DNA of 64,000 nucleotides from an uncultured Chloroflexia bacterium (GTDB lineage Bacteria; Chloroflexota; Anaerolineae; B4-G1; SLSP01). The notes under the pieces were generated by a model. The model saw only the letters and a program-made list of their open reading frames with translations, did not search any database and was not told the origin of the DNA. Below, piece after piece: positions 1-18,421 of this stretch (position 1 is the first letter of the stretch; every line of letters starts with the position of its first letter). The position numbers were made by a program, and so were the translations under genes. The stretch lies in NCBI GenBank assembly GCA_963751345.1, contig CAVVUS010000011.1, positions 1 to 64,000 on the forward strand, given 5' to 3'.

Positions 1-108
1 TCGCTCCCGCCTATAGTAATTCCTTATGGGACATCAAGAGCTCTCTAGCAATAGAGGGCTCTTTTTGTTTTGGTTAAGTTTTCGGAAGATCCCTGGTAGG
101 CCTATAAG
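1..108 (+). repeat. tRNA-3'-end/terminator module, copy 1 (cut by the window edge; could be the real tRNA-Asp 3' end)
   Basis: TCGCTCCCGCC-TATAGTAATTCCTTATGGGACATC, then hairpin AAGAGCTCTCTA-GCAA-TAGAGGGCTCTT (36-63) with T-tract, then GGCCTATAAG; near-identical to copies at 3324, 5461, 7177, 8852, 12727, 18305. Confidence 0.9.
36..71 (+). terminator. Rho-independent terminator carried by the repeat module (also at 3368, 5505, 7221, 8897, 12771, 18349)
   Basis: 12-bp stem with one G-U pair, GCAA tetraloop, followed by TTTGTTTT. Confidence 0.85.
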
Positions 109-170
109 CGTCTCGTCGTGAAGTTTTCGATCCAGGGTTACGAGGTTACCGATAGGGATCGCCAATTCTC

Positions 171-241
171 ACCCAACGGACTGCGCAAGGCAAGTTCACC
201 GCGCTTGAGCACGTGGGTGCAAGCCGACGCAGACGTTGGTT
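171..241. mobile_element. attC-like integron cassette recombination site
   Basis: ACCCAAC (RYYYAAC) ... GTTGGTT; imperfect palindrome CCAACGGACTGC / GCAGACGTTGG with an inner hairpin. Confidence 0.5.
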
Positions 242-433
242 ATCGTTGCTTTCACGTCCTTGTGATTGTGACTCCTGAACAGGTTTGGCTATTGCAACGT
301 TGGCGTCAAGGAATTCATGGGTTTTTTGCTTTGATCTTCCATCTCGAAGCAGAAAACACCGTTGACGTCCACACCATCCTCATGTACCCTTATACCAAAA
401 ATCACCCGAGCTTGAAACTGAAAGGTGAGTACC

Positions 434-1192
434 ATGTTTACAAGAGCGATAACAAGGAAGCCCTGCCCAAACTTTGGGCAAGGCATTACTACATCCAATC
501 TGGGTGCACCTATCTATGCCCGAATGCAAGCGCTTCACAAAGCTTATATCGCTGCTCTTCAGGATGCTGGGTTGACTGTCATTGAATTGGCGGGCCTGCC
601 CGCATATCCTGATGCGTACTTCGTGGAAGATGTCGCGGTTGTTACGCCTGATGTAGCCGTAATTGCCCGTCCTGGTGCGCCGGCCCGACGGGGGGAAGAA
701 ATTGCAATGGAACCTGTCCTCGCCCAGCATCGGCCCATTGCCCGTATCGAAGCTCCGGGAACACTGGATGGCGGCGATGTATTGATGGTAGGGACTCATT
801 TCTTCATTGGCATCTCGGAGCGCACGAATCAGGCAGGGGCCGAGAATTTGGGGAACATTTTAGAGCAATACGGGAATACATGGACGGCCGTTCTCATCGC
901 TGACGGGTTGCATTTCAAATCGGATGTCAATTACGTGGGCGGAAACACACTTCTTGTCACAGAAGCCTTTGCCGGGCGACCGGAACTGTCCAGGTATGAT
1001 CAGATCGTTGTGGACGTGGATGAATCATATGCCGCAAATGTGTTGTGGGTAAACGGGCGCATCCTCATGCCAAGAGGTTTCCCTAAAACCAAAGAAAAAC
1101 TTCGCGAACTAGGAGCCGATATCATCGAGCTAGACACCAGCGAAGCCCAAAAGATGGACGGGGGGCTCACCTGCATGTCCCTCCGATTCTGA
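434..1192 (+). CDS. ddaH: N(G),N(G)-dimethylarginine dimethylaminohydrolase (amidinotransferase family)
   Basis: MFTRAITR start, PDAYFVED, LDGGDVL, LHFKS, C-terminal DGGLTCMSLRF with catalytic Cys. Confidence 0.85.
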   Translation: MFTRAITRKPCPNFGQGITTSNLGAPIYARMQALHKAYIAALQDAGLTVIELAGLPAYPDAYFVEDVAVVTPDVAVIARPGAPARRGEEIAMEPVLAQHRPIARIEAPGTLDGGDVLMVGTHFFIGISERTNQAGAENLGNILEQYGNTWTAVLIADGLHFKSDVNYVGGNTLLVTEAFAGRPELSRYDQIVVDVDESYAANVLWVNGRILMPRGFPKTKEKLRELGADIIELDTSEAQKMDGGLTCMSLRF

Positions 1193-1488
1193 TTTTGCCT
1201 GTTATGCGAGATGGAAACCCGTGGGGTTCAAAAATGGCTGTGGGGGACCCATAATTCATCCACCAGTAATTTAGTTCCTTTATGCTGAGTTATCAGACGT
1301 TCTCGGGAGATTTAACCAGGGGCCTGCGACAGCGAGGAGAGCAAACCTCCTCGAGCGCGGCCTATTCCGTCGGAAATCGAGCGGCAGAGCCGTTGCTCCA
1401 TGGGTCTTCCGCTTTGCCTATCCGTTCCAGTGGCAATACAGCATCCTCAAGGCTGCTGACCATTTCCGGTAGTGCGGACGAGTATATC

Positions 1489-1615: not shown

Positions 1616-1697
1616 GCTTTCCTGCAGAATAAGCCAATTCAAGGAGAATAACGATGGCGAAAACCAAAGGCATTGAGAATATGGGCGGATCTGAGTT

Positions 1698-3185: not shown

Positions 3186-3200
3186 CCCGCGCAGGTAGGT

Positions 3201-3265
3201 AAAGTGACCCCCATGTTATGGACCACGACAGGGGCAAAATAAGTGAGAATTCCGGCTTAGCAAGG
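3201..3265 (+). mobile_element. Solo IS3-family-like terminal repeat remnant
   Basis: AAAGTGACCCCCATGTTATGGACCACGACAGGGGCAAAATAAGTGAGAATTCCGGCTTAGCA; repeated at 7055 (direct) and 5751-5813 (inverted); resembles the IS3/IS150 IR pattern GTGACCCCC-N5-TGGAC. Confidence 0.5.
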
Positions 3266-3304
3266 CTGGTCGAGCGGTATGCCTCCTTGTAGGAGTCTCA
3301 CGGC

Positions 3305-3441
3305 CTGTATACACGCGCTTGCCCGAATCCCGTCGCTCCCGCCTATAGTAAGTCCTTATAGGACATCAAGAGCTCTCTAGCAATAGAGGGCTCTTTTTGT
3401 TTCTGGGGCAGTTTCTCGTCTGTGAGCGGTGGGCCTATAGC
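3305..3441 (+). repeat. tRNA-3'-end/terminator module, copy 2
   Basis: GTATACACG arm, CGAATCCCGTCGCTCCCGCC (3324-3343), terminator 3368-3395, GGCCTATAG 3432-3440. Confidence 0.95.
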
Positions 3442-3589
3442 ACGTGCCTTGAAGACGCAAGTGACCTGTAACTATCGGATCACGAAATATGCGCCAGCAC
3501 ACCACGTTTGTGTGATCACACTGATGCTATTCCGCTTTCTACAGTGTGGGTCGATGTCGAGACGGCCATGTGCGATCTACGAGCCTGCA

Positions 3590-3772
3590 AATCTCTTGGC
3601 CGAGACCGCGGTCATCCGCTATGCCTACCACTATTCGGGCCTGCGCAGCCTGGGGGTGATCGAGTTCGAGCCTCCGATCTTTGGCCCGAGCAGCAACGCC
3701 CGTCTGCACAGGGACATGGTCGTATCGGTGGACATTCCTATGTATAATGCCCCTTGGGGCGGATTGCCCAAT
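3590..3772 (+). pseudogene. C-terminal fragment of an M24 (Xaa-Pro) peptidase-like gene
   Basis: YSGLRSLGVIEFEPPIFGP...DMVVSVDIPMYNAPWGGL resembles the M24 C-terminal region; no start and no continuation. Confidence 0.4.
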
Positions 3773-4027
3773 CCGCCCTACGCCGTGGGTCAGGCCCGGC
3801 ACGTTTGGAGACGCGCCCCACGACTTGCGGAACCCAGGTTCGTCACAAGACTGGTTTTTGGTTGTGCTGGTCGAAAACTCTATCCGTTGGCTGGTTTGCC
3901 TGTTGGGGAATGTCGATCTGAATCTCTTGGGAATAGGGACACCGTGGACCGTGCACACACCTGTCGAGTGGTAGGGGCTGAGCTGTAGGAATCATTTATG
4001 AGTTCCCTGAGATGAGGAGGAATAGCA

Positions 4028-5374
4028 GTGGAGAAGCAGATTACGCACGAGGATGTCGCAAGATTTGGGGCTGGATTTGATGCCGAACCCAAGAACCGGT
4101 TGGCGCTGAACGCGGTGACCAAGAACGGTGTAGGTGCCGTCGCACTGAGCCGGGAAACGGTCAATCGCCTAGACCACACCTATTCGAACTTTGTCACGAC
4201 ACCGGAGGCCACTAACCAGCAGCGCAGTGGACGCTGTTGGCTCTTTGCGGGACTCAATTTTCTTCGCCTGGCAGCCATGTCCAAGATGAACCTGGAAAAG
4301 TTTGAGCTTAGCCAGTCCTATTTGATGTTCTGGGACAAACTGGAAAAGGCCAACTTTTTCCTTGAGACCATCATCGAGACGCGCGACGAACCTCTGGAGG
4401 GGCGGCTGGTCATGTGGCTGCTTGCCGACCCCCTGCCCGATGGGGGACAGTGGGATATGTTTGTGAACCTGGTCCAAAAGTACGGTGTTGTGCCCAAAAC
4501 GGCCATGCCCGAAACGTTCAGCAGCAGCAACTCTGGGGCGATGAACACATTGCTGGTGGCCAAGCTACGCGAATACGCCTGGGTTCTGCGCGAGATGTAT
4601 GCAGAGGGCGCTTCCGTCCAGGACATGCGGCAGACCAAAGAACAGCAGATGGCCGAATTCTACAGGATGCTCACGATTCACTTGGGCAAGCCGCCGCGAC
4701 AGTTTTTCTGGGAGTGGAGGGACAAGGACAAGGCCTTTCACCGGCACGCCGACATTACGCCGACGGCGTTTTTCGAGCACTACGTGGATGTCGACCTGGA
4801 TGACAAGGTGTGCCTGATCCATGCGCCCACCAAGGACAAGCCCTTCGACAAGACGTACACGGTACAGTACCTCGGCAACGTGGTAGGCGGGTACACCGTT
4901 CGTTATCTGAACGTCCAGATCGATGTGCTCAAAAAGGCTGCGGTGGACATGATTGTGGATGGCCAAGCCGTGTGGTTTGGCTGCGACGTGGGCAAGATGT
5001 TCGATCGAGATCTGGGCGTCATGGATCTGGAGATCTATGACTATGATCTGGTCTATGGGACCCAGTTTAGGCTGGACAAAGGGGGGCGGCTGGACTATGG
5101 GCACAGTCGTATGACCCACGCTATGGTGTTGACCGGTGTGGACTTGGATGATGCCGGTCAGCCGCTCAAATGGCGCGTCGAAAACAGTTGGGGTACCGAG
5201 GTTGGCGACAAAGGCTACATGATCATGAGCGATGCTTGGTTCGACGAGTACCTGTACGAGGTGGCCGTCAGTAAGCAGTATCTCGCTCCCGAGTTGGTTC
5301 ATCTATTGGACACAGAGCCGGTCGTGCTTCCGCCGTGGGATCCGATGGGGGCGTTGGCGACGGCGGGGGTCTAG
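4028..5374 (+). CDS. pepC: Aminopeptidase C / bleomycin hydrolase (peptidase C1B)
   Basis: NQQRSGRCWLFA (catalytic Cys), DGGQWDM, MTHAMV (His), VENSWG (Asn), C-terminal PWDPMGALA; SD GAGGAGG upstream. Confidence 0.95.
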   Translation: MEKQITHEDVARFGAGFDAEPKNRLALNAVTKNGVGAVALSRETVNRLDHTYSNFVTTPEATNQQRSGRCWLFAGLNFLRLAAMSKMNLEKFELSQSYLMFWDKLEKANFFLETIIETRDEPLEGRLVMWLLADPLPDGGQWDMFVNLVQKYGVVPKTAMPETFSSSNSGAMNTLLVAKLREYAWVLREMYAEGASVQDMRQTKEQQMAEFYRMLTIHLGKPPRQFFWEWRDKDKAFHRHADITPTAFFEHYVDVDLDDKVCLIHAPTKDKPFDKTYTVQYLGNVVGGYTVRYLNVQIDVLKKAAVDMIVDGQAVWFGCDVGKMFDRDLGVMDLEIYDYDLVYGTQFRLDKGGRLDYGHSRMTHAMVLTGVDLDDAGQPLKWRVENSWGTEVGDKGYMIMSDAWFDEYLYEVAVSKQYLAPELVHLLDTEPVVLPPWDPMGALATAGV

Positions 5375-5394
5375 GGTTCGCGGATGTTCTAACC

Positions 5395-5577
5395 TAGCAA
5401 GGCAGGGCGGGTAGTATGCCTTGTGGCAAGAATCTCACAGTCCGTATCCGCGTGGTCGAACGACTCCCGTCGCTCCCGCCTATAGTAAGTCCTTATGGGA
5501 CATCAAGAGCTCTCTAGCAATAGAGGGCTCTTTGTGTTTTGGGGCAGCTTCCCGGCTGCGAGCGGTGGGCCTATAGC
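5395..5577 (+). repeat. tRNA-3'-end/terminator module, copy 3
   Basis: CGACTCCCGTCGCTCCCGCC 5461-5480, terminator 5505-5532, GGCCTATAG 5568-5576; upstream arm shared with copies 2 and 4. Confidence 0.95.
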
Positions 5578-5750
5578 AGATGCCTTGAAGAGGCAAGTGA
5601 CCGGTAACTATCGGATCACGAAATACGCGCCGGCACACCGCGTTTGCGCGATGACACTGATGCTGCTCCGCTTTCTATCGCAGCGCTCTCCTCGCCAGGT
5701 TCCGGCCCACGCTGTCTCAGTCAAGGTCATCAGGATCCGGCAACCTTGGT

Positions 5751-5813: not shown

Positions 5814-5823
5814 GCTCAATATG

Positions 5824-5935: not shown

Positions 5936-6577
5936 TCATATCTGTAGGAACTCGTATGTCAGGTTTTCAACTTTTGGCCATTCACGCTTTGTCACATCGA
6001 TGGAAATGCGATCTATTTCGAGTTGACCATAGACATCATTCGTTATTGACGCATATTCATTGAAGAAGTCCACAAAGCCATCGAATCCCGTCAGGTTTCT
6101 CTTCCGGCCATATGGCGTAGTATCAATGAAGCCGTCCAGTTTTTCTGACCATTCACCGCCCCGCAGTTTATATGTCTCTTTCAGGAAGGTTACGGCATTG
6201 TTCGCCGTATAGAGAACCAAGACAGGCGGAATATCCTTTATGATATTCTCAATCTTACGGCAAAATCCCACGATCTGATCTCGGGTACAGTCTATGAGAA
6301 GCATCTCTGCAATCGTATGTTGGAACCAGACGTACTCCATGACACACACCTTCTGTTGAGCGACAATGTCCGCAGATAGCTTTTCCCACTCCTGTAGGGT
6401 TCTAGCCGGCCATACACCGATGTCAGTAATGGCTCCCCTGTCAATCGGACTGGAATCCGAAGATTCCTGAATAAGGCATTTGTTTTCCACGCTTATTCGA
6501 TCGAACAGTTTCCTTGACATTGTCGTCTTGCCGCTTCCAGGAAGACCTTCGATCAGTATAAGTTTCGCATTTGTCAT
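5936..6577 (-). CDS. P-loop NTPase / nucleotide-kinase-like protein
   Basis: MTNAKLILIEGLPGSGKTT Walker A at the likely start (6577); the ORF extension to 6793 runs through the repeat and is probably spurious. Confidence 0.7.
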   Translation of the reverse strand: MTNAKLILIEGLPGSGKTTMSRKLFDRISVENKCLIQESSDSSPIDRGAITDIGVWPARTLQEWEKLSADIVAQQKVCVMEYVWFQHTIAEMLLIDCTRDQIVGFCRKIENIIKDIPPVLVLYTANNAVTFLKETYKLRGGEWSEKLDGFIDTTPYGRKRNLTGFDGFVDFFNEYASITNDVYGQLEIDRISIDVTKREWPKVENLTYEFLQI

Positions 6578-6654
6578 CTCTTGCACGTGTTCACCGTTCT
6601 CTGGTGCTCCTTTGGTTAGCGTAACATGATCTCTGAAAAATAACCCATAGCAAC

Positions 6655-6750
6655 CTGCATACACGCTCGGCGTCGAACCCCGTCGCTCCCGCTGGGTACA
6701 AAGTGTACTCAAGTTATGAAAGCCCACCAATGTGGTGGACTTTTTGTTTG
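6655..6750 (+). repeat. Divergent tRNA-3'-end module (copy 3b) with a different terminator
   Basis: GCATACACG arm, TCGAACCCCGTCGCTCCCGC 6673-6692, then hairpin AAAGCCCACCA-ATG-TGGTGGACTTT with T-tract. Confidence 0.8.
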
Positions 6751-7054
6751 TCCGAAAATGTGATTGCGGGAGCGATTGAGGCAAAGATGGCATTAGGTTG
6801 CCCTAACTTGCCGACGACTGTTTCGCCTAGGCCTCCATAGGCAATACCTCAATGATGAACCGGCACTGTGTCGGGTTATCTCCTCGATGGGCACAAGAAT
6901 AGGGCTTGATCTCAGGATTAGTTCTACTTGGTGCATTATCTGCCTTTCCAGTTGAGATTGCCCATCGAGCCGAGCGTGCCACGTCCGTGGCTTTCAGATA
7001 CTGGATCTGGGTGGACGTTTCGCCCAAAATCAACTTGTCCTATAATCCTAGAAT

Positions 7055-7293
7055 AAGGTGACCCCATGTGTTGGACCACGAACGGGGCAAAATAAGTGAG
7101 AATTCCGGCTTAGCAGGGCAGGGCGGGTCGTATGCCTTCCGGCACGAATCTCACGATCCGTATACGCATGGTCGAACGACTCCCGTCGCTCCCGCCTGCA
7201 GGAATCCCTTATGGGACATCAAAAGCTCTCTAGCAATAGAGGGCTCTTTGTGTTTGTGGGAGACACGGGGGCAGTCTGGGTTGGGCCTATAGT
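7055..7293 (+). repeat. IS3-like end plus tRNA-3'-end/terminator module, copy 4
   Basis: IS-like end from 7055, CGACTCCCGTCGCTCCCGCC 7177-7196, terminator 7221-7248, GGCCTATAGT 7284-7293. Confidence 0.95.
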
Positions 7294-7420: not shown

Positions 7421-8581
7421 CTAGTCGAACTTGACGCGGTTCGTCTCGTGTTTCTCGATCCAGTTCCAATCGAACTCCACACCCAGGCCAGGCCCTTCCG
7501 GCGCATATACGTTGCCCTGCGCATCGATGGCTTCCAGGCTGTCTTCGTAGTTGGTGTAGATCTGGGAGGTGAAGGTGCCTTTGTTACACGGGTGCACGAG
7601 GCCCATCTCATAGTAGTTCGTGTTGCGAATCGAGGTCATACAGTGCCGTTGAGCCGGGCCGGGACCGTGCATCTCGATGTCGATGCCCAGACCCTCACTG
7701 GCGTGGGCCAGTTTCATCACGCCGGTGATGCCGTCATAACCCACATCGCCGCGAAGGAAATCAGTCGCATCCGCCAAGGCGAAGTCGACGTGTGGTTCGA
7801 GCGTGCGCACGTGCTCTGTGAGCAGCAGGGGCGTGCGGATCATCTGTCGCAGCTTGCGGTGGGCGAACTGCGAGATGCCGCCGTCCTTGTAGGGGTCCTC
7901 CAGCCAGAAGAACTTCTCCTCGTCGCACGCCCACCCGACCTTGAGCGCGTCGCCGAAGGTCTCCAGCTCGCACGCGGGATCGATCAGCAGGTCCATTTTG
8001 CCGCCGACGCGCCGGCCTACCTCGTGGATGTTGGCGATCTCGAGGTCGGTCTCCGAGTTGCCCCAGCCGTGAATCTTGAACGCGGGATAGCCCATCTCCA
8101 GACAGCGTTCGGCGAAGTCGGCGTAGGCCTGCGGGGAGTCGAGGCCGCCATTGTGGTCGCCGTGCGTGGTGCTGGCATAGCAGGGCAGGGGTTTGATATG
8201 CCCACCGAGGAGTTCATAGACGGGCGCATTGTAGTACTTGCCTGCGAAATCCCAGAGCAGGACGTCGATCTGAGCCATACCCATGCGCGCCTGTTGGCGC
8301 AAGGCGCGCTTCAAGTCCTGGTAGATACGCTCGCGCTCCAGGGGATTCTTGCCCAGCAAGTAGTCGCGGTAGCGCGCCTGGGCCACCAGCCCGGCGCCTC
8401 CGGCGATCTCACCTGTCACGCCGACGCTGGTGTACATACGCAGCACCGAGCCCTGGCGCGGAATCGTGCTGCCTTTTTCATAGACCGTGTTGAACCCGTT
8501 GTAGTCGGTGCCCATATCCTCCATGGGCGGCAGGTCGAACTGGATCACCTCGAAGCCCGTGATTCTAGGTTTCTCACCCAT
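7421..8581 (-). CDS. Mandelate racemase/muconate lactonizing enzyme family (enolase superfamily), probable sugar-acid dehydratase
   Basis: IDVLLWDFAGK, PVYELLGG, FKIH, WLEDP, PEGPGLGVEFDW motifs. Confidence 0.9.
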   Translation of the reverse strand: MGEKPRITGFEVIQFDLPPMEDMGTDYNGFNTVYEKGSTIPRQGSVLRMYTSVGVTGEIAGGAGLVAQARYRDYLLGKNPLERERIYQDLKRALRQQARMGMAQIDVLLWDFAGKYYNAPVYELLGGHIKPLPCYASTTHGDHNGGLDSPQAYADFAERCLEMGYPAFKIHGWGNSETDLEIANIHEVGRRVGGKMDLLIDPACELETFGDALKVGWACDEEKFFWLEDPYKDGGISQFAHRKLRQMIRTPLLLTEHVRTLEPHVDFALADATDFLRGDVGYDGITGVMKLAHASEGLGIDIEMHGPGPAQRHCMTSIRNTNYYEMGLVHPCNKGTFTSQIYTNYEDSLEAIDAQGNVYAPEGPGLGVEFDWNWIEKHETNRVKFD

Positions 8582-8834
8582 TTTGCTGCTCCTTTCGGTT
8601 CCGGCGTGGTGGTAGATAGAGTCTAGTCCTTAGCAGGGCATCGTCCATATGTACATTGTAGGCCATTCTGCCGTCAGCGGGCGGTGACCTTGCCTCGTGG
8701 GGTAAGCCAGTCAGAATGAACTGCATGTTAAGGCACAGAGGGTTACGCGCGTGTAATTGCTCCGACGTACTTGTCGCGGTCTGGATAGCATTCTGATCAT
8801 CGCTCCCAACGCGCTGGGAGGTACACAACCAACC

Positions 8835-8948
8835 GCATACACGTGATCGAACGAGTCCCGTCGCTCCCGCCTATGGTAGAGTCCTTATGGGACATCAAGA
8901 GCTCTCTAGCAATCGAGGGCTCTTTTTGTTTTTGGGGTGGCCTATAAT
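8835..8948 (+). repeat. tRNA-3'-end/terminator module, copy 5
   Basis: GCATACACGTGATCGAA arm, CGAGTCCCGTCGCTCCCGCC 8852-8871, terminator 8897-8924, GGCCTATAAT 8939-8948. Confidence 0.95.
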
Positions 8949-9039: not shown

Positions 9040-10692
9040 ATGACGGAATCAAGACTGACTGGCGCGTATATGCGAGGGTTGTACCACGCCTGCGGTGTGG
9101 ATGAGATCGAGGGTCAGCCACGGATAGGGATTGCCAACTCGTGGAATGAAATGGTGCCGGGCCACATCCACCTCGATCTCGTTGCGGATGCGGTCAAGGA
9201 CGGCGTGCGCGCTGCCGGCGGTGTCCCACTGGAGTTCAACACCATCGCGCTCTGCGACGGCATCTGCCAGGGGAGCGGCATGCACGCCGTCCTGCCTAGT
9301 CGCGAGGTGATCGCCGCCTCGGTCGAGCTGACGGCGCGCGCCTACAGCTTTGATGCTCTGGTCTGTTTGGCCTCGTGCGACAAGATCGTTCCCGGGATGC
9401 TGATGGCTGCCGCGCGTCTGGATCTACCGACGATCTTCGTCACCGGCGGTCTGATGGCCGAGGGGGAGTGGCGGGGCGGGCGAGTCGTGACCTCTGATGT
9501 CAAGGAGGCCATAGGGCGAGCAAACCGGGGGGAGATCACGCTGGATGAGCTCCACGAGATCGAGTTCGCTGCCTGTCCGGGCCCGGGCGTGTGCAATATG
9601 ATGGGCACAGCGAACACGATGTGCACCGTTGTCGAGGCCGCCGGATTGAGCCTGCCCGGCAATGCAACAGTCGCGGCGACAGAGGGTCAGGACCAGATTA
9701 GCTCTGCCTTGCTGTCGCTCGCATCCGCAGCGGGCAGACAGGCGGTCACGCTATCCGGGAGCGACGTGACGTTCGGTGATATCGTGACGCCTGCCACCTT
9801 GCGCAACCTGATTGCAGTCGTGCAGGCAATGGGCGGCTCAACCAACCTGGTGCTGCACCTTACCGCACTCGCCACAGAACTGGGCTATCCTGTCACGCTC
9901 GACGATTGGGATCGCATCGGGCAGCAGACGCCGCTCCTGGCAAAGTTCAAGCCGGCGTCGTCCTATTCCGTGTCCGACTTCGGGCGCGCGGGTGGTGTCC
10001 CAGCGCTGCTCAAAGAAATGGCGCCCCTGCTGGACCTGAGTGCGCCTACGGCCTATGGGACTCCCTTGACCCAGGTCGTCGCGCAGGCTGAGAATCGTCT
10101 CCCTGAGATCATTCACTCACTAGAGGCTCCCCTAGCTCCCACGGGGGGCATCGTCGTTCTGCGTGGCAACCTGGCTCCCGAGGGAGCAGTCGTCAAGGCC
10201 AGTGGCGTCTCACCGAACATGGTGCATCACATTGGCCCTGCCCGCGTGTTCGACAGTGAAGAAGACGTGCAGAGATGCCTGCTTGACGGCGGCGTCCATC
10301 CCGGGGACGTGCTCGTGGTGCGCTACGAGGGACCGCGCGGCGGCCCAGGCATGCGCGAGCTCTCACTGCCGGCAGCGATCCTGGTTGGCATGGGGTTGGC
10401 AGAGTCGGTGGCTATGGTCACCGATGGGCGCTTTTCCGGCGCGACACGCGGCCCGTGCGTTGGGCACGTTTGCCCGGAAGCTGCACGGGGCGGGCCGCTA
10501 GCCGTCCTGCAGGATGGTGACGTGATCGAGATCGATATCGCCAACCGCACGCTGAACGTACGCTTGAGCGAGGAGGCACTGGACGCGCGGCTGGCTGCGT
10601 GGACGCCGCCCATCAAGGAAATCCCACCGGGCTTCCTGCGTATGTATGCCGCCCACGTCGGACCGGCGAGCCAGGGAGCGGTGGTGCGTTAA
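9040..10692 (+). CDS. ilvD: Dihydroxy-acid dehydratase family (IlvD/Edd)
   Basis: [64 protein letters not shown]. Confidence 0.92.
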
Positions 10693-10770
10693 CTCGGAGA
10701 TCACCCTCACTTACACTGTGGGGCTGTAGCTTGGGGAGCCGCCATGCGAGCTCCGGAAAGGAGTCGGGCA

Positions 10771-11649
10771 ATGGTCACTGACGTAGTATCAGAGCGTTTC
10801 GGATTTCTGGCCTCTCTGGGCTTTCAATCATGGCCGGTGGAAGACGTGGTTCGCTGTCTTGCTGATCTCGGCTACGATGCTGTGGAGTGGACACTGGGAC
10901 ATTTCGATCCGACCGCAAGCTCTGGCGATCTCGCCGATCTGGTCCGCGTACCAAGCCGGCACGGTCTCGTGGCTTCGGAGATTGTGGTCCAGCAGGACTT
11001 CGTGACACCGGATCCGGCACTCTTCGAGGCGCGGGTATCGCTGGTTGAGGCCTGCATCCCGGCAGCAGCAGGGATCGGCATCAGTGTTCTGAACCTCTGC
11101 ACCGGCCCAGCGCCCTGGGATCCAAAGGCACCGCGCCTTGGGAAGGACATCTCGGAAGGCGAGGCTTGGGCGCTGGTGGGCAAGGCCTTTGACAGACTGG
11201 TCCCCCTGGCAGAGCGCCATCATGTCTACCTGGCGGTAGAGGCGGTGTTTGGCCATCTCTGCCACGACTACTACACGCTGCTGGAGCTGTTGCGCCGTTA
11301 CGACTCCGAGTTTCTCGCCGTCAACATGGACCCCTCACACTACCGGTTGTATGGTAACGACATCGATTGGGTCGTTCACCAACTGGGAGCCAGGATCCAG
11401 CACGTGCATCTGAAAGACGTCGTCGGACGGCCGGGCATGGTGGGAGAGGACTTCACGTTCCCGCTGCTTGGGGAGGGCGTGGTCGACTGGGGTGCTTTCC
11501 GGCAGGCGCTGGGGGATGTGGATTATCGTGGCGTGATGTCTGTCGAGTTCGAGGCCTTCGGCTACTACGCGCAGATCCTGGGGCGGGATCCCGCCAAGGC
11601 CGCGGAGCTCTCAATGCAGCAGATCCGGGCTCTGTTTCCGTCTCAGTAG
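10771..11649 (+). CDS. Sugar phosphate isomerase/epimerase (xylose isomerase-like TIM barrel)
   Basis: LGYDAVE, LAVEAV, NMDPSH, HVHLKD, LGEGVVDW, MSVEFE. Confidence 0.88.
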   Translation: MVTDVVSERFGFLASLGFQSWPVEDVVRCLADLGYDAVEWTLGHFDPTASSGDLADLVRVPSRHGLVASEIVVQQDFVTPDPALFEARVSLVEACIPAAAGIGISVLNLCTGPAPWDPKAPRLGKDISEGEAWALVGKAFDRLVPLAERHHVYLAVEAVFGHLCHDYYTLLELLRRYDSEFLAVNMDPSHYRLYGNDIDWVVHQLGARIQHVHLKDVVGRPGMVGEDFTFPLLGEGVVDWGAFRQALGDVDYRGVMSVEFEAFGYYAQILGRDPAKAAELSMQQIRALFPSQ

Positions 11650-11727
11650 CTGAGACGGCGATGTGTGGGGTGAAGCTGACCGGTGGTGAGATCGTTGGTG
11701 AGTCATTGATAAGGAGGAGTAGACCCT

Positions 11728-12627
11728 ATGAAAACCCTAGTGACTGGTGGAGCCGGAGATATCGGAGCCTATGTAGTGGCAGATTTGGTGTCTCACGACA
11801 TCGACGTCACCATCCTTGATCTCAAGCCCCCGCGCAAGGAGGTCGAAGGCGTGGGGTTCGTGCAGTGTGACCTGATGGACCTGGAGGCCACGATCGAGAC
11901 CGTCAAGGATTATGATGTCGTGGTTCATCTGGCGGCTATCCCACATCCATTCAACGACCCTGCCGACCGGGTGATGGCTGTCAACATGGTCACGTGCTTC
12001 AACGTGCTGGAGGCGGTTCGGCTGAACGGTATACGGCGCGTCGTCTACGGGTGCAGCGAGTCATCGACCGGCTTTGGCATCCACAACGTGGAGCTCGTCC
12101 CCCTCTACCTGCCTATCGATGAGTCCCATCCGTGCTGGCCCCACGAGGTCTACAGTTTCACCAAGCGGTTCGGCGAAGTGATGGTGGAGAACTACGCCAG
12201 GGCCTACGGTATAGAGGCTATCGCACTGCGCTACTGCTGGGTATGGCTGGAGCGCGACCGGGCGGGAATCCAGGCAATTGTAGATGCGGGGCTGCGTGGC
12301 GAGGGAAATGCCAAGCCCTGGTTCGGGTGCTATGTCTCACCCCACGATGTGGCGCAGGCGGTCCGGCAATCCGTGTGCTATAAGTTCCCGGCGGAGCAGG
12401 CGATGGATTTCGAGGCATTCTACGTCACTGCCGATACCACCTACCTGACCGTACCCTCCTTGGATGCACTTGGGGCGCACTTCGATCCTATGCCCGAGCT
12501 GCGAGATGCGGCCTACTTCGTCGACGAGCCAAAGGCATCGCCATTCGACAACCGCAAGGCCAAACGGCTGCTCGGATTTCAGCCCACGATGGACTGGCGG
12601 ACCTTCGCCCAGTGGCCGAAACCCTAG
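11728..12627 (+). CDS. NAD-dependent epimerase/dehydratase (extended SDR)
   Basis: LVTGGAGDIG, VVHLAA, YSFTK (YxxxK); SD AAGGAGG. Confidence 0.9.
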   Translation: MKTLVTGGAGDIGAYVVADLVSHDIDVTILDLKPPRKEVEGVGFVQCDLMDLEATIETVKDYDVVVHLAAIPHPFNDPADRVMAVNMVTCFNVLEAVRLNGIRRVVYGCSESSTGFGIHNVELVPLYLPIDESHPCWPHEVYSFTKRFGEVMVENYARAYGIEAIALRYCWVWLERDRAGIQAIVDAGLRGEGNAKPWFGCYVSPHDVAQAVRQSVCYKFPAEQAMDFEAFYVTADTTYLTVPSLDALGAHFDPMPELRDAAYFVDEPKASPFDNRKAKRLLGFQPTMDWRTFAQWPKP

Positions 12628-12709
12628 CAGACGACGGGTTGTCGTTGAGCACCGTATGTCGCCTCTTATGGCGAGATGGTGAATCCATATGCGGAGTGGA
12701 GACGACTGA

Positions 12710-12843
12710 CCATACACGTGGTCGACCGAGTCCCGTCGCTCCCGCCTATAGTAATCCCCTATGGGACACCAAGAGCTCTTCTTCACCGGAGGGCTCTTTG
12801 TGTTCTCCGGTAGATTGCCCCAGTCGACCGGAAGGCCCATAGT
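12710..12843 (+). repeat. tRNA-3'-end/terminator module, copy 6
   Basis: CATACACGTGGTCGAC arm, CGAGTCCCGTCGCTCCCGCC 12727-12746, hairpin 12771-12798 with changed loop but retained stem, TTGCCC-17-CATAGT 12815-12843. Confidence 0.92.
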
Positions 12844-13080
12844 GGGCGCGAGCGCGGGCGCAGGACTGTCTTGGATGGATGGCTTCGGCCTGTAGAATAC
12901 CACCCTCAATACCCCCATTGTGTGATGACGCCTATACTCCCTCTCTGGTATGCTGTGGACGATGAAGAGTGTGATTCCAACCAGGCGGGGCGAGTATCTA
13001 GCGACCAAACCGGCACAGCTACCAGATTCGTCCGGTTGATCGCCGAGGACGACTTCAACCAAACAGGAAAGGACAGAAAC

Positions 13081-14004
13081 ATGAAAACAACGCATAGAGG
13101 CTACGCGGAGACGTCAGGAGACTTCAACCGGCTGTGTCGTTTCATCTCGGAGCGTGGGAATGACTTTCGCGACTATTCGACGTGGTCGCTGGGGCGGCTG
13201 GTGGACTGGAAGTACGGTCTCTACGACAACAAGCAGGCGGTCGCCGACTTCTGCGATCAGAACGCCCATCTCTGGTTCGATGCTTTTGGCGATCTGATCG
13301 GCTTTGTGGTGTCGGAGAGTGGCGACGCGAGCTTTGCGATCTTACTGGCGGATGGCTACCGGTTTCTCTTCGAAGAGCTGCTGACGTGGGCGCTCGACGC
13401 TTGGGGCGACCGCGAGGGCACGACACAGGTCGAGGTGACTGTGCGCCAGGACGTGGAAATCAGGGCATTGGAACGCCATGGTTTCCAGCAGCAGACGACC
13501 TTCTACGCGCGGTGCTTCGACCTGACCCGGGCGTCGGAAGCGCGGAAGTCGCTGGCGGAGGGATTCACCATCGTCGATATGCATTCGCATCCTGACTACG
13601 CCGGACAGCGCCGGCTGCGCGACAACGCGTTTGACGGCAGGAATGACCTGCCCCAGGATGTGATCGAGCGGGAGCTTGAGTTCTACAACCACAGTCAGAA
13701 GGGCCCGATCTATCATCCACAGGTCGATCTCTGCGTGATGGCGGCGGATGGGCAGCTCGTGGCCGGGTGCGAGGCGCTGCTGGACGCGCGGAACGCGACA
13801 GCCGACCTCGAGCGCATCTGCACGCATAGCGATTTTCGGCGCCGGGGCTTTGCCAGGGCCGCGATCCTGGCGTGTATGGACCGGCTCCGCGAGATGGGCT
13901 TCAGGACCGCCTACATCACCGGTTATAGCCCGGGGGCCATCGCCCTCTACGGTTCGTTGGGCCACGTCGGTGAGACGGTGTGCTTCGAATACCGGCTTGC
14001 TTGA
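13081..14004 (+). CDS. GNAT family N-acetyltransferase
   Basis: C-terminal ICTHSDFRRRGFARA...AIALYGSLG acetyl-CoA motif; start MKTTHR after AAAGGA. Confidence 0.85.
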   Translation: MKTTHRGYAETSGDFNRLCRFISERGNDFRDYSTWSLGRLVDWKYGLYDNKQAVADFCDQNAHLWFDAFGDLIGFVVSESGDASFAILLADGYRFLFEELLTWALDAWGDREGTTQVEVTVRQDVEIRALERHGFQQQTTFYARCFDLTRASEARKSLAEGFTIVDMHSHPDYAGQRRLRDNAFDGRNDLPQDVIERELEFYNHSQKGPIYHPQVDLCVMAADGQLVAGCEALLDARNATADLERICTHSDFRRRGFARAAILACMDRLREMGFRTAYITGYSPGAIALYGSLGHVGETVCFEYRLA

Positions 14005-14052
14005 TGCCGGAGGGAATGTTGCGCTAGTGCGCGGGTACGGTACACTTGGTGC

Positions 14053-16953
14053 ATGGAGACACAGCTCCTACGCACCAAGTTCTATGTGCCTCCCATACGG
14101 ACCGAGCTGGTCTGGCGCCCACGCCTGATCGAGCGGCTGAATGCGGGCCTGTGGTGGGACGGCGGCGCGGCGCGCAAGCTCACGCTCGTTTCTGCCCCGG
14201 CGGGCTTTGGCAAGACGACGCTGGTGAGTGCGTGGGTCAAAGCGCTGGGGGATGCTTCTCCCTCTATCGCTGTCGGTTGGCTCTCGATCGATGAGAGCGA
14301 CAACGACCCGATCCGCTTCCTCACCTATCTCGTAGGGGCGTTGCAGGCCGTCAACGCCGATATCAGCAAGGGGGCCTTGACGGCACTGCGATCTCCGCAG
14401 CCCCCGCCCGTCGAGGCCATCCTGACCACGCTGATCAACGACATCACAGCTCTCCCTGAGCGGATCGTCCTCGTGCTTGACGACTACCATCTGATTGAGG
14501 CGCAAATGATCCACGATGCGCTCACCTTTCTGCTTCGCCGCCTGCCGCCCCAGCTACACCTGGTTATCGCCACGCGTGAGGACCCGCTTCTCCCCTTGGC
14601 CCGTCTACGCGCCCGGGGACAGATGACGGAACTGCGTGCCGCGGACCTGCGGTTCACCCATGACGAGGTCGCCGAGTTCCTCAACCGCGCGATGGGATTG
14701 GACCTGTCATCGGGCGACACTGCAGCATTGGGCGATCGCACTGAAGGCTGGATTGCCGGATTGCAGCTAGCCGCGCTCGCCCTGCAAGGGAGTGTTGCTG
14801 AGCAGGGGCGCGGCGATGTGGGTCGCTTCATCGACTCATTCGCCGGCAGCCACCGCTTTGTTCTGGACTACCTGATTGAGGATGTCCTGGAGAGGCAGTC
14901 GAAGAGTGTCCAAACCTTCTTGCTGCGAACCTCCATTCTAGAGCGGCTAACCGGCTGCTTGTGCGATGCTCTCACCGGTCAGGAGGATGGCCAACAGACT
15001 CTGGAGATGCTGGAACGCGCCAATCTGTTCATCGTGCCTTTGGACAACGAGCGCCAATGGTATCGCTACCATCATCTCTTTGCCGATATGCTCCGGCGGC
15101 AATTGCAGCGCACAGAGTCACATCTGGTTTCCCAGCACCATCATCGGGCGAGTATCTGGCTGGAGCAAGCTGGATTCTTCGATGATGCGATCAGGCATGC
15201 GTTGCTGGCCAACGATTTCACCCGCAGTGCCGACCTAATCGCAGACCTGGCCGATCCTTTGTGGAAACGAGGCGAACACGTCAAGCTGCGGTTATGGTTG
15301 GCGAAACTGCCAGAGGAGGCGCTATGTGTCCGGCTCGAGCTCTGTATCTATCAGGCCTGGTTCTTATTCTCCACCGGGCAACCTGAACCCGCTCAACAAT
15401 TGCTCCAGGTGGTCGAGCGGGACATCGAATCGGACCGTGATCATCCCAAACTGCGGGGCCGGCTGGGAGCCATCAGGTCACAGATAGCTTACTGGAAGGA
15501 AGATATGCCGGGCATCGTTCGGTATGGTGGTTGGGCAATGGAGTATCTGCGATCGGGCGATCCCTGGCGCAATATGGCAGCCACCGCTATCGGCGATGCA
15601 CGCCATTTCCAGGGCGATGTCCAGGCTGCCTACCAGACTCGTCTGGAAACCCTAGCCGCCAGCCCACCGGAAGATGATCTTTTTTTCTATATGGTTGCCA
15701 ACCTGAAGGTCGCATCCAGCTTGCGAGCGATGGGAAAGCTCAACGAGGTCATCCAGATCTGTCAGCAGCAACGGGAGTTTGCCACACAGCGGGGCCTGTC
15801 GAAAACAGTATTTGTGGGCTGGGCCCTCGCGCTCTGGGCGGTTACTCTGGCGGAGCAAGATGAGCTAGACCAGGCTCTGGAGTTTGCCCAACAAAGCTTG
15901 GAACTCAACCTGGGTGGCGATTATGCGTTATTGAGTTTCAGTTACCTTGTCCTGGCGATCGTGTGTTTCCATCGTGGGGATTACGACAATGCAGAAGCCA
16001 ACCTAAAGACATTGGCCGAAATCCAACAAACTCACCACATCCCCTTCAATACTGCCGGATCCCTGGTAGGATGGCAAGCCCGGGTACTGCTGGCGCAGAA
16101 TCGATTGGGTGAGGCCGCACGGTGGATCGCTGCCCAGGATTGTGAGGGCGACGAAAAGCTGTTCATGACATACGACCACGTGATTGTGGTACGCGCCCGC
16201 CTCCTCCTGTCTCAGGGAAACCTGGATGAAGCGACCAGCCTGCTGACTCGCTTGGCGAACGCTTGTGAGGCTATTGGGCATGTCACCCACTGGATTGAGA
16301 TACTGATTCTTCAGGCCCTCACCTACTACAAGTCCGACAGGATTTCTCTGGCTCACCACCACCTTGAACAGGCCCTCATCTTGGCTGAACCCGGTGGCTT
16401 CATTCGAGCATTCGCCAGCGAAGGCCAGCCGATGGCCCGGCTGCTCTATGAAGCCCTCTCGCGGGGGATAGTACCGGACTATGTCCGGCGGCTGCTATCA
16501 GCTTTCCATAATACTGGACCGGCGTCGCCACCATCGTCTGGGGTCCATCGTTCATCGTCGGATCTGATAGAGCCGCTGAGCGATCGCGAACTCCAGGTGC
16601 TGAAGCTGGTCGCGGAGGGTTTCACCAACCCGGAGATCGCGTCCAAGCTCTACCTCTCCCCGCATACGATCAAGACCCACACGCGAAACATCTACGGCAA
16701 GCTTGGCGTACACAGTCGCACGCAGGCTGTAGCGCGCGCTCAGGTCCTTAGGGACTTCTGTCGACCGGATAGGTGCCGTGTGGGCTCATCCGTGGCGGCA
16801 GTGGCTTTGCTGCCCACGACCTCTACTGAGGCTGGCTTCAGTCGTGGGACTCGTTGTCGTTTCCTCCATTCAGTACTACTACCCCGGTTACCCCGTTCGT
16901 GTGATGACGCTACTCCCGCCTCGCGGCTACAGTGTGGATGTTGCTTTCAATGA
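14053..16953 (+). CDS. MalT-like ATP-dependent LuxR family transcriptional regulator
   Basis: LLRTKFYVP, SAPAGFGKTT, LVLDDYH, TEGWIAGLQL, YRYHHLF, C-terminal HTH LSDRELQVL..KTHTRNIYGKL; the true stop is probably TAG 16770-16772 (indel near 16750). Confidence 0.92.
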   Translation: METQLLRTKFYVPPIRTELVWRPRLIERLNAGLWWDGGAARKLTLVSAPAGFGKTTLVSAWVKALGDASPSIAVGWLSIDESDNDPIRFLTYLVGALQAVNADISKGALTALRSPQPPPVEAILTTLINDITALPERIVLVLDDYHLIEAQMIHDALTFLLRRLPPQLHLVIATREDPLLPLARLRARGQMTELRAADLRFTHDEVAEFLNRAMGLDLSSGDTAALGDRTEGWIAGLQLAALALQGSVAEQGRGDVGRFIDSFAGSHRFVLDYLIEDVLERQSKSVQTFLLRTSILERLTGCLCDALTGQEDGQQTLEMLERANLFIVPLDNERQWYRYHHLFADMLRRQLQRTESHLVSQHHHRASIWLEQAGFFDDAIRHALLANDFTRSADLIADLADPLWKRGEHVKLRLWLAKLPEEALCVRLELCIYQAWFLFSTGQPEPAQQLLQVVERDIESDRDHPKLRGRLGAIRSQIAYWKEDMPGIVRYGGWAMEYLRSGDPWRNMAATAIGDARHFQGDVQAAYQTRLETLAASPPEDDLFFYMVANLKVASSLRAMGKLNEVIQICQQQREFATQRGLSKTVFVGWALALWAVTLAEQDELDQALEFAQQSLELNLGGDYALLSFSYLVLAIVCFHRGDYDNAEANLKTLAEIQQTHHIPFNTAGSLVGWQARVLLAQNRLGEAARWIAAQDCEGDEKLFMTYDHVIVVRARLLLSQGNLDEATSLLTRLANACEAIGHVTHWIEILILQALTYYKSDRISLAHHHLEQALILAEPGGFIRAFASEGQPMARLLYEALSRGIVPDYVRRLLSAFHNTGPASPPSSGVHRSSSDLIEPLSDRELQVLKLVAEGFTNPEIASKLYLSPHTIKTHTRNIYGKLGVHSRTQAVARAQVLRDFCRPDRCRVGSSVAAVALLPTTSTEAGFSRGTRCRFLHSVLLPRLPRSCDDATPASRLQCGCCFQ

Positions 16954-16984
16954 GAGAGTCGCACAAGGAGAGAGAGAAGTGAGG

Positions 16985-18154
16985 ATGGCGAGGAAAGCAA
17001 AGGATCCGGCAAAAGGATGCCGACACGGCATACCCTTCATCACGAGCACAATGCTCATCCTATCGATTCTGACATCATCGAGCCTGGTCGGATGCGGTTC
17101 TTCGGAGCCGCAATTGGCAGTCGTAGACTATCGACCCTTGACAGGGGATGACTGGGAAGTGTCTACGCCGGCAGAGCAGGGGATGGACCCGGAACTGGTG
17201 GCTGAACTCTACCATAATGCGGCTGAACTTGAGACCCTCTATGGGCTGCTGGTGACCAAAAACGGTTATCTGGTGGCCGAGGAGTACTTCAACGGAGGGA
17301 CAATCGGGCAGAAAGCCCTGTTGCAGTCGGCGTCCAAGAGTTTCCTCTCCGCATTGGTTGGCATTGCGCTGGATCAGGGCTGCTTGTCAAGCGTGGATCA
17401 GAAGATGCTTGACTTCTTCCCAGAGTCTGTCGACCAAATCGTCGATCCGAGGAAAGCGCAGATCACCCTTCGCCACATGTTGCAGATGCGCGCCGGCTAC
17501 CCTGACGAGGAGACGGATTCGGCCTATCTGGATGCGCTCTACTGGGGCGAGTATCTTCCCCTGATCGCTGAGTTCCCACTTGTCGACGATCCAGGATCCG
17601 CATTCAACTACAGCAACCTGACAAGCAGTTGGCTGGCAATCATCGTGGCCCGAGCGTGTGAGACGGACCTCAAGTCTTTTGCTCAGCAATACCTATTCTC
17701 GCCGATGGATGTCGAGGTGGGCGAGTGGTTGCAGGATCGGGATGGCCACTACATAGGCAGCGGGGGCATCCACCTCACGGCTCGCGAGGCGGCAAAGTTT
17801 GGCGCGTTGTACCTCAACAACGGCAAATACGAGGGGAACCAGATCGTCCCTGCCGATTGGGTGCGTGATTCGCTGCAGACGTATACGGAGCATGCCCGGA
17901 ACTATGGTATGAGCGTTCGCTTCCGCGATATGGCCTATGGTTACCAGTGGTGGTCCGCTCGGGCGGGGGGGCATCGGTTTAACTTCGCATGGGGACATGG
18001 CGGACAACTGATCGTGCTGTTGGACGACCTTGACATGGTGATTGTCACGACTGCCGATCCGTTTTTCGGCCAACACGACGGCCAATCATGGAAACATGAA
18101 AAGGCAACCATGAATCTAGTGGCGGATTTCATAGCATCCTTACCGGGTGAGTGA
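16985..18154 (+). CDS. Serine hydrolase (beta-lactamase/6-aminohexanoate-dimer hydrolase-like), probable lipoprotein
   Basis: Lipobox-like LVGC, QSASKS (SxxK), FNYSN, YGYQWW, AWGHGGQ. Confidence 0.88.
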   Translation: MARKAKDPAKGCRHGIPFITSTMLILSILTSSSLVGCGSSEPQLAVVDYRPLTGDDWEVSTPAEQGMDPELVAELYHNAAELETLYGLLVTKNGYLVAEEYFNGGTIGQKALLQSASKSFLSALVGIALDQGCLSSVDQKMLDFFPESVDQIVDPRKAQITLRHMLQMRAGYPDEETDSAYLDALYWGEYLPLIAEFPLVDDPGSAFNYSNLTSSWLAIIVARACETDLKSFAQQYLFSPMDVEVGEWLQDRDGHYIGSGGIHLTAREAAKFGALYLNNGKYEGNQIVPADWVRDSLQTYTEHARNYGMSVRFRDMAYGYQWWSARAGGHRFNFAWGHGGQLIVLLDDLDMVIVTTADPFFGQHDGQSWKHEKATMNLVADFIASLPGE

Positions 18155-18288
18155 CACTCAAGCTGGAACGCCACTGTGGCCGGTTGACGACTCCGGCCGC
18201 TCCCAAAGGGAAGCAGCCGGGGGCACTGTAGACCGTCGGATCGCGTGCGGGGGGATCGCAGGCTATAGGGCAGCACCACGACTGTATG

Positions 18289-18421
18289 AATACACGCGAT
18301 CGAACGACTCCCTTCGCTCCCACCTCTAGTATTTCCCTATGGGACATCAAGAGCTCTCTAGCCATAGAGGGCTCTTTGTGTTTTGCGGCAGTCTGCTATT
18401 CTTGAACGAAAGGCCTATGGT
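18289..18421 (+). repeat. tRNA-3'-end/terminator module, copy 7 (most mutated tRNA segment)
   Basis: AATACACGCGATCGAA arm, CGACTCCCTTCGCTCCCACC 18305-18324, terminator 18349-18376, GGCCTATGGT. Confidence 0.9.

Follow-up and report, generated by a model that had tools for sequence, protein, structure and literature searches.

The question raised by the locus considered here is how a run of short gene units with unrelated cargo came to lie one after another, each set off from the next by a direct copy of what resembles the 3' end of a tRNA-Asp gene. The window, that is, the whole 64,000-nt stretch of DNA that was analysed, is the start of contig C11 (CAVVUS010000011.1, positions 1 to 64,000, forward strand) of the genome of an uncultured Chloroflexia bacterium (GCA_963751345.1; hereafter G000), a bin of 5.4 Mb in 49 contigs that is 93% complete, with 5.6% contamination. 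In the original prediction, made from the sequence of the window alone, the repeats were taken to be attachment sites of an integron-like array, in which small integrase-free cassettes were captured by a tyrosine integrase acting in trans. The evidence presented below favors, with a probability of about 0.72, a reading in which window 1-18.4 kb is a tRNA-Asp-anchored island built by serial integration of the type carried out by large serine recombinases (LSRs), the units of which are now LSR-less. The island probably extends to 39.7 kb.

Searching the window with the 20-nt motif, with up to three mismatches allowed, revealed seven full copies, namely at 3324, 5461, 6674, 7177, 8852, 12727, and 18305, all on the + strand. 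In 100 shuffled windows, the mean number of copies was 0.07 and seven were never reached (0/100). Eight direct copies had initially been counted, yet the copy at position 1 is truncated, comprising the last 11 nt only (tcgctcccgcc), because contig C11 starts inside the repeat. As had been noted from the outset, every copy is followed by a terminator, with terminator-like hairpins being found at most ~45 nt 3' of all eight (at 36, 3368, 5505, 6724, 7224, 8897, 12771, and 18349). Identification of the cargo with Pfam agreed with the list first drawn up, including the lack of a gene in 6674-7177. The 18.4 kb are occupied by units of 0.5-5.6 kb, each with a terminator at its start and with cargo that is metabolic and mutually unrelated; units 3 and 5 are on the - strand. 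The features of the window are as follows (open reading frame, ORF; flank types are described below):

1..70 (+): truncated first repeat, with the final 11 nt of tRNA-Asp and a type-A flank, terminator 36-63; the same sequence follows the intact tRNA-Asp gene on contig C20
71..3199 (+): unit 1 cargo, an ADI/amidinotransferase-fold gene (425-1192) and a beta-lactamase-fold serine hydrolase (1698-3185); GC content 50.0%
3200..3440 (+): module 2, with long arm 3200-3323, core 3324-3343, terminator 3368-3395, and the GGCCTATAG motif near 3435
3441..5394 (+): unit 2 cargo, a PepC-like peptidase C1 (Peptidase_C1_2) at 4028-5374
5395..5580 (+): module 3, with arm 5395-5460, core 5461-5480, and terminator 5505-5532
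5936..6640 (-): unit 3 cargo, a P-loop NTPase/kinase-like gene, the mechanically called ORF of which extends to 6793 across the module; unit GC content 49.4%
6657..6745 (+): module 4, with arm, core 6674-6693 (CCCCG...GCT variant), type-B flank GGGTACAAAGTGTACTC, and terminator 6724-6738
6746..7053 (no strand): unit 4, an 'empty' unit of 0.3 kb with no gene
7054..7260 (+): module 5, with long arm 7054-7176, core 7177-7196, and terminator 7224-7245
7421..8581 (-): unit 5 cargo, an MR/MLE (enolase-superfamily) gene
8833..8937 (+): module 6, with arm, core 8852-8871, and terminator 8897-8924
9040..12627 (+): unit 6 cargo, an IlvD/Edd dehydratase, a xylose-isomerase-like TIM barrel, and an NAD-dependent epimerase
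12710..12805 (+): module 7, with arm, core 12727-12746, and terminator 12771-12798
12871..18154 (+): unit 7 cargo, a GNAT-domain protein, a MalT-like STAND/LuxR regulator, and a beta-lactamase-fold protein
18288..18391 (+): module 8, the last, with arm, core 18305-18324 (two changes), and terminator 18349-18376
18399..18866 (-): intI remnant, the N-terminus of an integron-type integrase, convergent with module 8
18753..19220 (+): 155-aa ORF with no Pfam match, 3' of the best promoter-like site of the region (18716-18743)
19338-19356: arm-like remnant TATACACACATGTATAGAG with no core, 3' of the 155-aa ORF
22365..39652 (+): carbohydrate-use segment of 17 kb, with glycoside hydrolases, an ABC transporter ATPase, and a fucosidase; it starts at the GGCCTATAG motif and has no module at either end in the window

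The MalT-like STAND/LuxR regulator gene found at 19397-22266 on the - strand is split into three ORFs (360, 184, and 422 aa) and shares 64-78% DNA identity with an intact inverted paralogue at 14053-16953. It is probably a pseudogene, sited where a module core would be expected.

That the motif corresponds to the end of a tRNA-Asp gene, and that such a gene should be sought to the left of position 1, had both been proposed, and both proposals were borne out. Of the 50 tRNAs detected by ARAGORN in G000, the single tRNA-Asp(gtc) is located at c[3189..3264] of contig C20. In its own direction of transcription, this gene ends in ...TTCAAATCCCGTCGCTCCCGCC, after which come the terminator and the 3.2 kb that are also seen in window 1-3200. 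C20:1-3204 and window 1-3200 are 98.8% identical, with 37 mismatches and one gap, and C20 stops where the next module begins. Because the sequence that follows tRNA-Asp on C20 matches window 1-3200, the array starts at tRNA-Asp. Unit 1 is either a tandem duplicate or present as two strain variants in the bin. Upstream of tRNA-Asp on C20 lie housekeeping genes (encoding a short-chain dehydrogenase/reductase [SDR], an aminotransferase, an ABC transporter, FtsZ, and Ddl) and no recombinase. In the window itself, ARAGORN detected no tRNA or pseudo-tRNA, and an Rfam E-value scan of 1-20000 for structured RNAs returned two weak, irrelevant matches only.

The repeat proved to be longer than the piece of tRNA by which it was recognized. 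That piece is real, yet alignment of the copies showed ~20-140 nt to be shared 5' of the tRNA-derived core (the arm) and ~75 nt, including the terminator, to be shared 3' of it. Considering the information content of 69 distinct modules, a conserved block was seen to span positions -40 to +15 relative to the first nucleotide of the core, i.e., ~55 nt. The consensus reads ...GGnAnGAA-(10-13 nt)-GTATACACGTGAGTGAGCGAn for the arm, the box of which is GTATACACG, followed by the core, YCCCGTCGCTCCCGC. The CGAnY found just left of the core matches the T-loop of typical tRNA-Asp genes and differs from the resident tRNA (CAAAT in G000), placing the crossover at or to the right of Y. When 68 modules were submitted to RNAalifold, no conserved fold was obtained, with trivial 3-bp pairing and 0 covarying pairs being returned; the constraint is, therefore, on primary sequence. 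This points to the module being a double-stranded protein-binding site rather than an RNA or an attC-like hairpin.

Three types of 3' flank were distinguished. Type A (CCTATAG..., a small hairpin, and a terminator) follows tRNA-Asp in G000 and in the related genome G002, as well as most window copies; in most type-A flanks, CCTATAG stands directly after the core and a second motif, GGCC(T/C)AT(A/G)G, is found ~100 nt from the core. Type B (GAGTACAAATGTTACTC...) follows window copy 6674 and most copies in a second relative, G021. Type C (...TGTATA...ATGGGTCAAC hairpin) consists of the 3'-terminal part of the LSR gene described below. The gradient of age that had been proposed, with copies becoming more mutated with distance from the tRNA, is at best weak: the last copy, 18305, does contain two changes, yet copy 6674 already contains one or two, and changes do not accumulate steadily along the array. 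Part of the distal arm is also found as an inverted copy at 5752-5813, after module 3.

Arrays of the same design were found in other genomes. In G002 and G021, the best-assembled relatives, tRNA-Asp likewise precedes an array of this module, with different cargo and with four copies in G002 and six in G021; G021 also contains small arrays at four further places, one of them behind a decayed tRNA-Asp. A 166-nt module query matched 17 of the 24 other genomes in the family, including 16 of the 21 that belong to the genus, and none of the 16 genomes from the two sister families of the order. The wider spread was scanned with an exact arm+core pattern, from which diverged copies would escape. This revealed 56 loci in genome contigs, a few of which are chance or mis-binned occurrences, mostly titled as Anaerolineae, Ardenticatenaceae, Promineifilaceae, or 'Chloroflexia' metagenome-assembled genomes, and 70 loci in metagenome contigs. 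The same exact pattern, which would miss diverged copies, was present in no viral contig, and no phage carrier was seen. In G000, full modules are found in this one array only and on one strand, such that a dispersed repeat akin to a miniature inverted-repeat transposable element was rejected. In loose pattern searches, the core is mimicked by the repeat of a clustered regularly interspaced short palindromic repeats (CRISPR) array at ~10100-17100 of locus L073 (G089:C2), which contains GTCGCTCCCC.

The recombinase associated with this attachment site was sought by clustering all ORFs found within 3 kb of 139 modules. A single recombinase family emerged, present at seven loci and always on the 3' side of the module and on the opposite strand. 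The protein is an LSR containing Resolvase, Recombinase, and Zn_ribbon_recom domains. Among NCBIfam models, it matches CcrB best, with a score (153 bits) that is far under the cut-off of 900, such that the LSR is not a Ccr orthologue. When 21 genomes were searched with the LSR and the matches were compared against core positions, an LSR gene or remnant was seen to start within 2-75 nt of the core at 17 places, spread over 12 of the 21 genomes; six of the 17 adjoin true tRNA-Asp genes. The LSR ORF continues across the complement of the core (...RERRD...) for a further 23-100 nt, such that the stop codon lies inside the tRNA, or in the arm or preceding unit; the arm encodes SLTHVY. Intact LSR genes are seen in relatives at G098:C4:408747-410477 and G089:C35:493236-494942, and remnants in G002 (after a type-C module), on G021:C5, and on G000:C2. 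In other genera, units measure 28-73 kb, and two of the three examined have an intact LSR at the left core and a remnant at the next core. Given these large LSR-bearing units, the family is one of ordinary tandem islands that is miniaturised here; the contrast that had been drawn with larger, integrase-bearing tandem islands does not hold, since the units of relatives do carry a recombinase. Similarly, the tyrosine integrase of the original prediction gives way to the LSR. Symmetry between the arm and the 3' flank, in the form of an inverted repeat (at least 8/10 matches), was seen with 3 of 12 LSR-adjacent modules vs. 1 of 121 others, a noisy comparison that is suggestive of such symmetry beside the LSR.

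Relics of a second array are found elsewhere in G000, at C2:4562-4617 and 11581-11757 (core at 11741-11757; - strand) and at C3:26474-26529. The C2 and C3 relics are near-identical and are themselves unit-like, with a decayed arm+core and then a core followed by an LSR remnant with a type-C flank.

Comparison of the arrays revealed individual units to be shared between species. Flanking housekeeping DNA is 83-90% identical between G000 and G002; shared units are 96.6-98.9% identical. The PepC unit (unit 2) is 98.9% identical in G002 and lies between two modules in both genomes, while for the IlvD unit (unit 6) the figure is 96.6%, with a module at the end of the unit in either genome. A G002 unit with modules on both sides matches window 22670-39652 at 97% identity. 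Window 12805-22364, on the other hand, is absent from the homologous place in G002, and an 89% identical copy of the unit 5 MR/MLE gene is found in G002 ~50 kb from the tRNA-Asp of that genome. In the case of G021, flanks are ~70% identical to those of G000 and the unit 1 beta-lactamase-fold gene is 92% identical, forming a unit of its own. The GC content of units 1-4 is 49.4-56.6%, as compared to 62.8% for the genome. With unit identity above that of the flanks and with the low GC content of several units, these sequence comparisons indicate that units have been exchanged horizontally between species. Cargo order and content vary between relatives, a point on which a check had originally been proposed, and the same unit appears at other array positions. 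Homology between genomes starts and stops inside modules; one G000/G002 breakpoint, at 22365, falls exactly on the GGCC(T/C)AT(A/G)G motif, with no adjoining module.

Beta-lactamase-fold serine hydrolases are recurrent cargo, being present in window units 1 and 7 and in G021. In G021:C5 (locus L007), one such hydrolase gene forms a single-gene unit at 9908-11423 between two modules, with a GC content of 39% vs. 48% for the locus.

In the mechanism proposed, the island would have grown as units were integrated site-specifically, one after another, into the 3' end of a single tRNA-Asp gene. Every such event would restore the end of the tRNA and leave behind a junction consisting of the arm (...GGnAnGAA...GTATACACGTGAGTGAGCGAn), the core (YCCCGTCGCTCCCGC), and the terminator flank. 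The recombinase of this attachment-site family would be the CcrB/DsiB-like LSR, the gene for which, in relatives, marks the left edge of a unit, lies on the opposite strand, and reads through the core. In the window, the eight junctions would bound LSR-less, non-autonomous units, which may be deletion derivatives, or else passengers mobilisable in cis or in trans, like the Dehalococcoides ssrA islands that have no integration module. The original description of the copies as junctions of serial site-specific insertion is retained here. We infer that an LSR made these particular window junctions; the present movement of small units would involve a helper LSR acting in trans, or homologous recombination between modules.

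Several observations weigh against this proposal. An LSR adjoins 12 of 133 distinct arm-bearing modules and does not adjoin the other 121; in the window, the figure is 0 of 7. No match to the Resolvase domain was found in G000 (93% complete), with only a 53-residue LSR remnant being present on C2. In the survey of the genus, covering 21 other genomes and G000, no intact LSR was found, with close relatives of the LSR being represented only by fragments in G020, G021, and G002 (3 of 21), in addition to G000. Moreover, all of the window modules carry a right half that is like the tRNA flank (i.e., the terminator), unlike the right half found on the LSR side. They look like attR-type junctions, with which an LSR alone does not integrate; given this composition, the small units may be products of decay or homologous exchange rather than singly integrating cassettes. 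Besides LSR fragments, the recombinases that adjoin cores in the genus are intI (four places) and a G021 tyrosine-integrase pseudogene. Finally, no excision product was demonstrated, the read data being single low-depth contigs. The sequencing runs consist of short contigs, the best run containing 0.20 of the sampled words, and the parts left uncovered are uninformative. A joint of 3377 to 95 was seen in one short contig of depth 3 from an unrelated run, and a joint of 19385 to a module (5451) in a single low-depth contig of run X1; each fits a circle, a tandem copy, or the array of another strain alike. In run X5, one short contig skips 6745-7062, corresponding to the empty unit 4.

Of the alternatives, the one that fares best holds that the junctions are fossils and that present reshuffling occurs by RecA-dependent homologous recombination between modules of 100-200 nt after DNA uptake. 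Such a scenario would account for the lack of an intact LSR in 21 genomes of the genus. It is also in line with the modules of one array being 75-97% identical over 70-280 nt, with homology between genomes beginning and ending inside modules, with one breakpoint lying at the GGCCTATAG motif and not at the core, and with the presence of unit 1 twice at 98.8% identity. It leaves the origin of the arm+core junctions unexplained, however, and units are found at new array positions where the flanking arms are only ~80% identical. Homologous recombination is, moreover, compatible with LSR-type integration as a later layer, rather than as its replacement. As a full account of the locus, it is possible, if doubtful.

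It was also considered that the genus has lost the LSR, yet that miniaturised units continue to circulate and to be captured at tRNA-Asp by an LSR helper acting in trans or by IntI. Were this the case, the locus would be a working functional analogue of an integron, based on serine-recombinase attachment sites. Such ongoing capture seems unlikely.

Still less likely is the possibility that IntI itself is the working recombinase on these modules in the genus, acting through a non-classical site, with the array being a derivative of an integron. The window units contain no cognate recombinase gene, as originally stated, yet the last copy is followed by an intI remnant at 18399-18866 (- strand). 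This retains ~65 N-terminal residues (homology at 18486-18700), the catalytic part having been deleted, and scores 67 bits with PF13495 and 62.7 bits with TIGR02249, as compared to a cut-off of 265. An intI gene or remnant convergent to a tRNA-Asp core and ~0.1-0.4 kb away from it is found at four places in three genomes of the genus. In G006, intI is next to tRNA-Asp at C59:1-564 and next to a decayed tRNA 3' half at C293:4350-5252, the latter, full-length or nearly so, scoring 464 bits with TIGR02249 (cut-off 265). In G019 (L047:6012-6440), an internally deleted intI with IS3 alongside is followed by cargo and then a module; the intI of the window is likewise followed by cargo and then an arm remnant (19338), in what is the layout of a unit. 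Against this stand some 50 other intI loci of the order that are not beside tRNA-Asp, as well as the module-bearing genomes found elsewhere, in which intI is distant or absent. G002 and G021, with their large arrays, contain no intI, and the module presents neither a GTT/AAC crossover box nor a hairpin. The adjacency can be explained otherwise, and intI is read here as cargo or as an old neighbor of the tRNA in the genus.

The integron-like platform originally envisaged, in which integrase-free cassettes are captured by a tyrosine integrase in trans and the repeat plays the part of attC, is very improbable. The small size of the units (0.5-5.6 kb), their lack of a cognate recombinase, their exchange between species, and the existence of the 'empty' unit at 6746-7053 are all as such a platform would have them. 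Nonetheless, hairpins of the type RYYYAAC...GTTRRRY, corresponding to attC, number 0 in window 1-40000, whereas the same script finds three in a control integron (G086). Together with the lack of any attC-like fold or R-box pair among the modules, this speaks against an attC role. Genes on both strands, the carriage of a recombinase by the units of relatives, and the fact that the associated recombinase is an LSR likewise disagree with the platform. In the control (L116; G086:C65, 1-1500), attC sites (GCCCAAC...GTTGGGC) are seen at 330, 998, and 1422, and adjacent blocks consist of a 41-nt tandem repeat.

Nor was a tyrosine integrase consistently found near modules; the LSR, as noted, is at 17 places in 12 of 21 genomes. 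In G000, PF00589 yielded three matches, two of them Xer-like and one divergent and in a housekeeping context. The latter (G000:C18:350976-351962, - strand, 328 aa) was rejected as the cognate recombinase given this context, the replacement of Arg-I by Lys, and the missing second His. It lies between UDP-glucose-dehydrogenase-like and SufS-like genes, and a weak PF00589 match of similar length is seen once each in several related genomes. No tyrosine integrase was found in the arrays of G000, G002, and G021. Across 16 further module-bearing genomes, the tyrosine integrase nearest to a real module was 27 kb away (G099:C12); in G102, two matches lie closer (~6 and ~15 kb), beside cores with no arm. 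In 350 kb of metagenome loci, one tyrosine integrase was found, 7.7 kb from a module and with no adjoining core. A candidate 'module' near an integrase in G089:C2 turned out to be a CRISPR repeat. The tyrosine-integrase pseudogene of G021:C5, which lies 1.3 kb from a module, was also set aside, as no module stands close to its relatives in G011, G076, and G067, one of which is beside tRNA-Ala, and as a relative in metagenome locus L175 has no adjoining core. Y1 transposases gave three matches in G000, none near the array.

That the array is an assembly artefact, whether a chimera joined at the repeat or collapsed strain variants, is scarcely credible: the bin does comprise 49 contigs with 5.6% contamination, C11 does start inside the repeat, and C20 does duplicate the first 3.2 kb with 37 differences, yet arrays of the same design are found on contigs of 0.16-0.96 Mb in two other genomes and in many further records, and unit-module junctions seen in the window are found again in G002 and G021.

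The closest precedent for LSR-type integration at this locus comes from the same phylum. According to the available portions of two reports, the ssrA islands of Dehalococcoides are arranged in tandem, each bounded by ssrA or by a 20-bp repeat, with 11 repeats in strain VS and with traces of similarity over ~150 bp around each (PMC3146451, PMC2764846). The same texts describe DsiB, a CcrB-like serine recombinase of ~540-600 aa the gene for which adjoins attL, in reverse orientation, at the left edge of the island, and cargo consisting of strain-specific metabolic genes (PMC3146451, PMC2764846). In the portion available of the first of these, dsiB is described as overlapping the attachment site, with its stop codon lying upstream in the target gene or the neighboring island, and 15 ssrA islands with no integration module are read as possible cis-mobilisable elements growing by accretion (PMC3146451). 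To the extent described there, the likeness to the present locus is considerable: repeats of a target 3' end bound tandem units, recombinase-less units coexist with others, and, in relatives, the LSR ORF that runs through the core into its target reproduces the dsiB arrangement at ssrA. The LSR and DsiB are likened here on the basis of the published description and gene layout, and not by sequence. The two differ in that the target here is tRNA-Asp and not ssrA and the host belongs to the Anaerolineae, in that the arm is conserved over ~40 nt across several families, and in that units in the genus of the window are 0.5-5.6 kb, with the recombinase present as remnants only. Companions similar to DsiA, RecF, ParB, or Mom did not turn up here, although no search was aimed at them.

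Other known systems share fewer traits. Composite islands of the staphylococcal cassette chromosome (SCC/SCCmec, with CcrAB or CcrC) include ccr-less pseudo-SCC units. In SCC, as related in the available part of one report, an LSR inserts elements into the 3' terminus of a conserved gene present in one copy, and direct repeats bound tandem elements (PMC3146451). The LSR considered here has CcrB as its best NCBIfam match; by contrast with SCC, it targets an RNA gene, no additional small serine recombinase was observed, and the score is 153 bits vs. 900. Integrons, too, hold many small and often single-gene units at one locus with the recombinase outside, and an intI remnant lies at the distal end of the present array. 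They differ from it in that here there are no attC sites or R boxes, genes lie on both strands, units are led by terminators, the repeat is a tRNA 3' end, and the association is with an LSR; integron cassettes share one orientation and are transcribed from a common promoter. Finally, the tycheposon islands of Prochlorococcus are described, in what is available of the preprint, as tandem elements beside tRNAs, with partial tRNA copies between them, degenerate remnants, and tyrosine recombinases (bioRxiv 10.1101/2020.12.28.424599). On that description, the scatter of partial tRNAs is similar; unlike the tycheposons, the attachment site considered here has no tyrosine integrase tied to it. A keyword search of open-access main text found no paper on tRNA-Asp islands or on this module in Chloroflexota.

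The island is thus of a kind already described, namely, that of the Dehalococcoides ssrA islands with DsiB, and reveals no new principle of gene capture; what is new is the tRNA-Asp target in Anaerolineae. Targeting of tRNA genes is usual for tyrosine integrases and unusual for serine recombinases, and the attachment module of ~55 nt described here is tied to a CcrB/DsiB-like serine recombinase family that targets tRNA-Asp. As a compact natural attP/attB pair, it is a candidate tool for site-specific integration. The ssrA-island model is extended to another class of the phylum. For the bacteria concerned, a widespread and poorly studied group of soil and sediment Chloroflexota, the locus is a hot spot of gene gain, at which peptidases, hydrolases, sugar-acid dehydratases, and glycoside hydrolases move between species as small units bounded by attachment sites.

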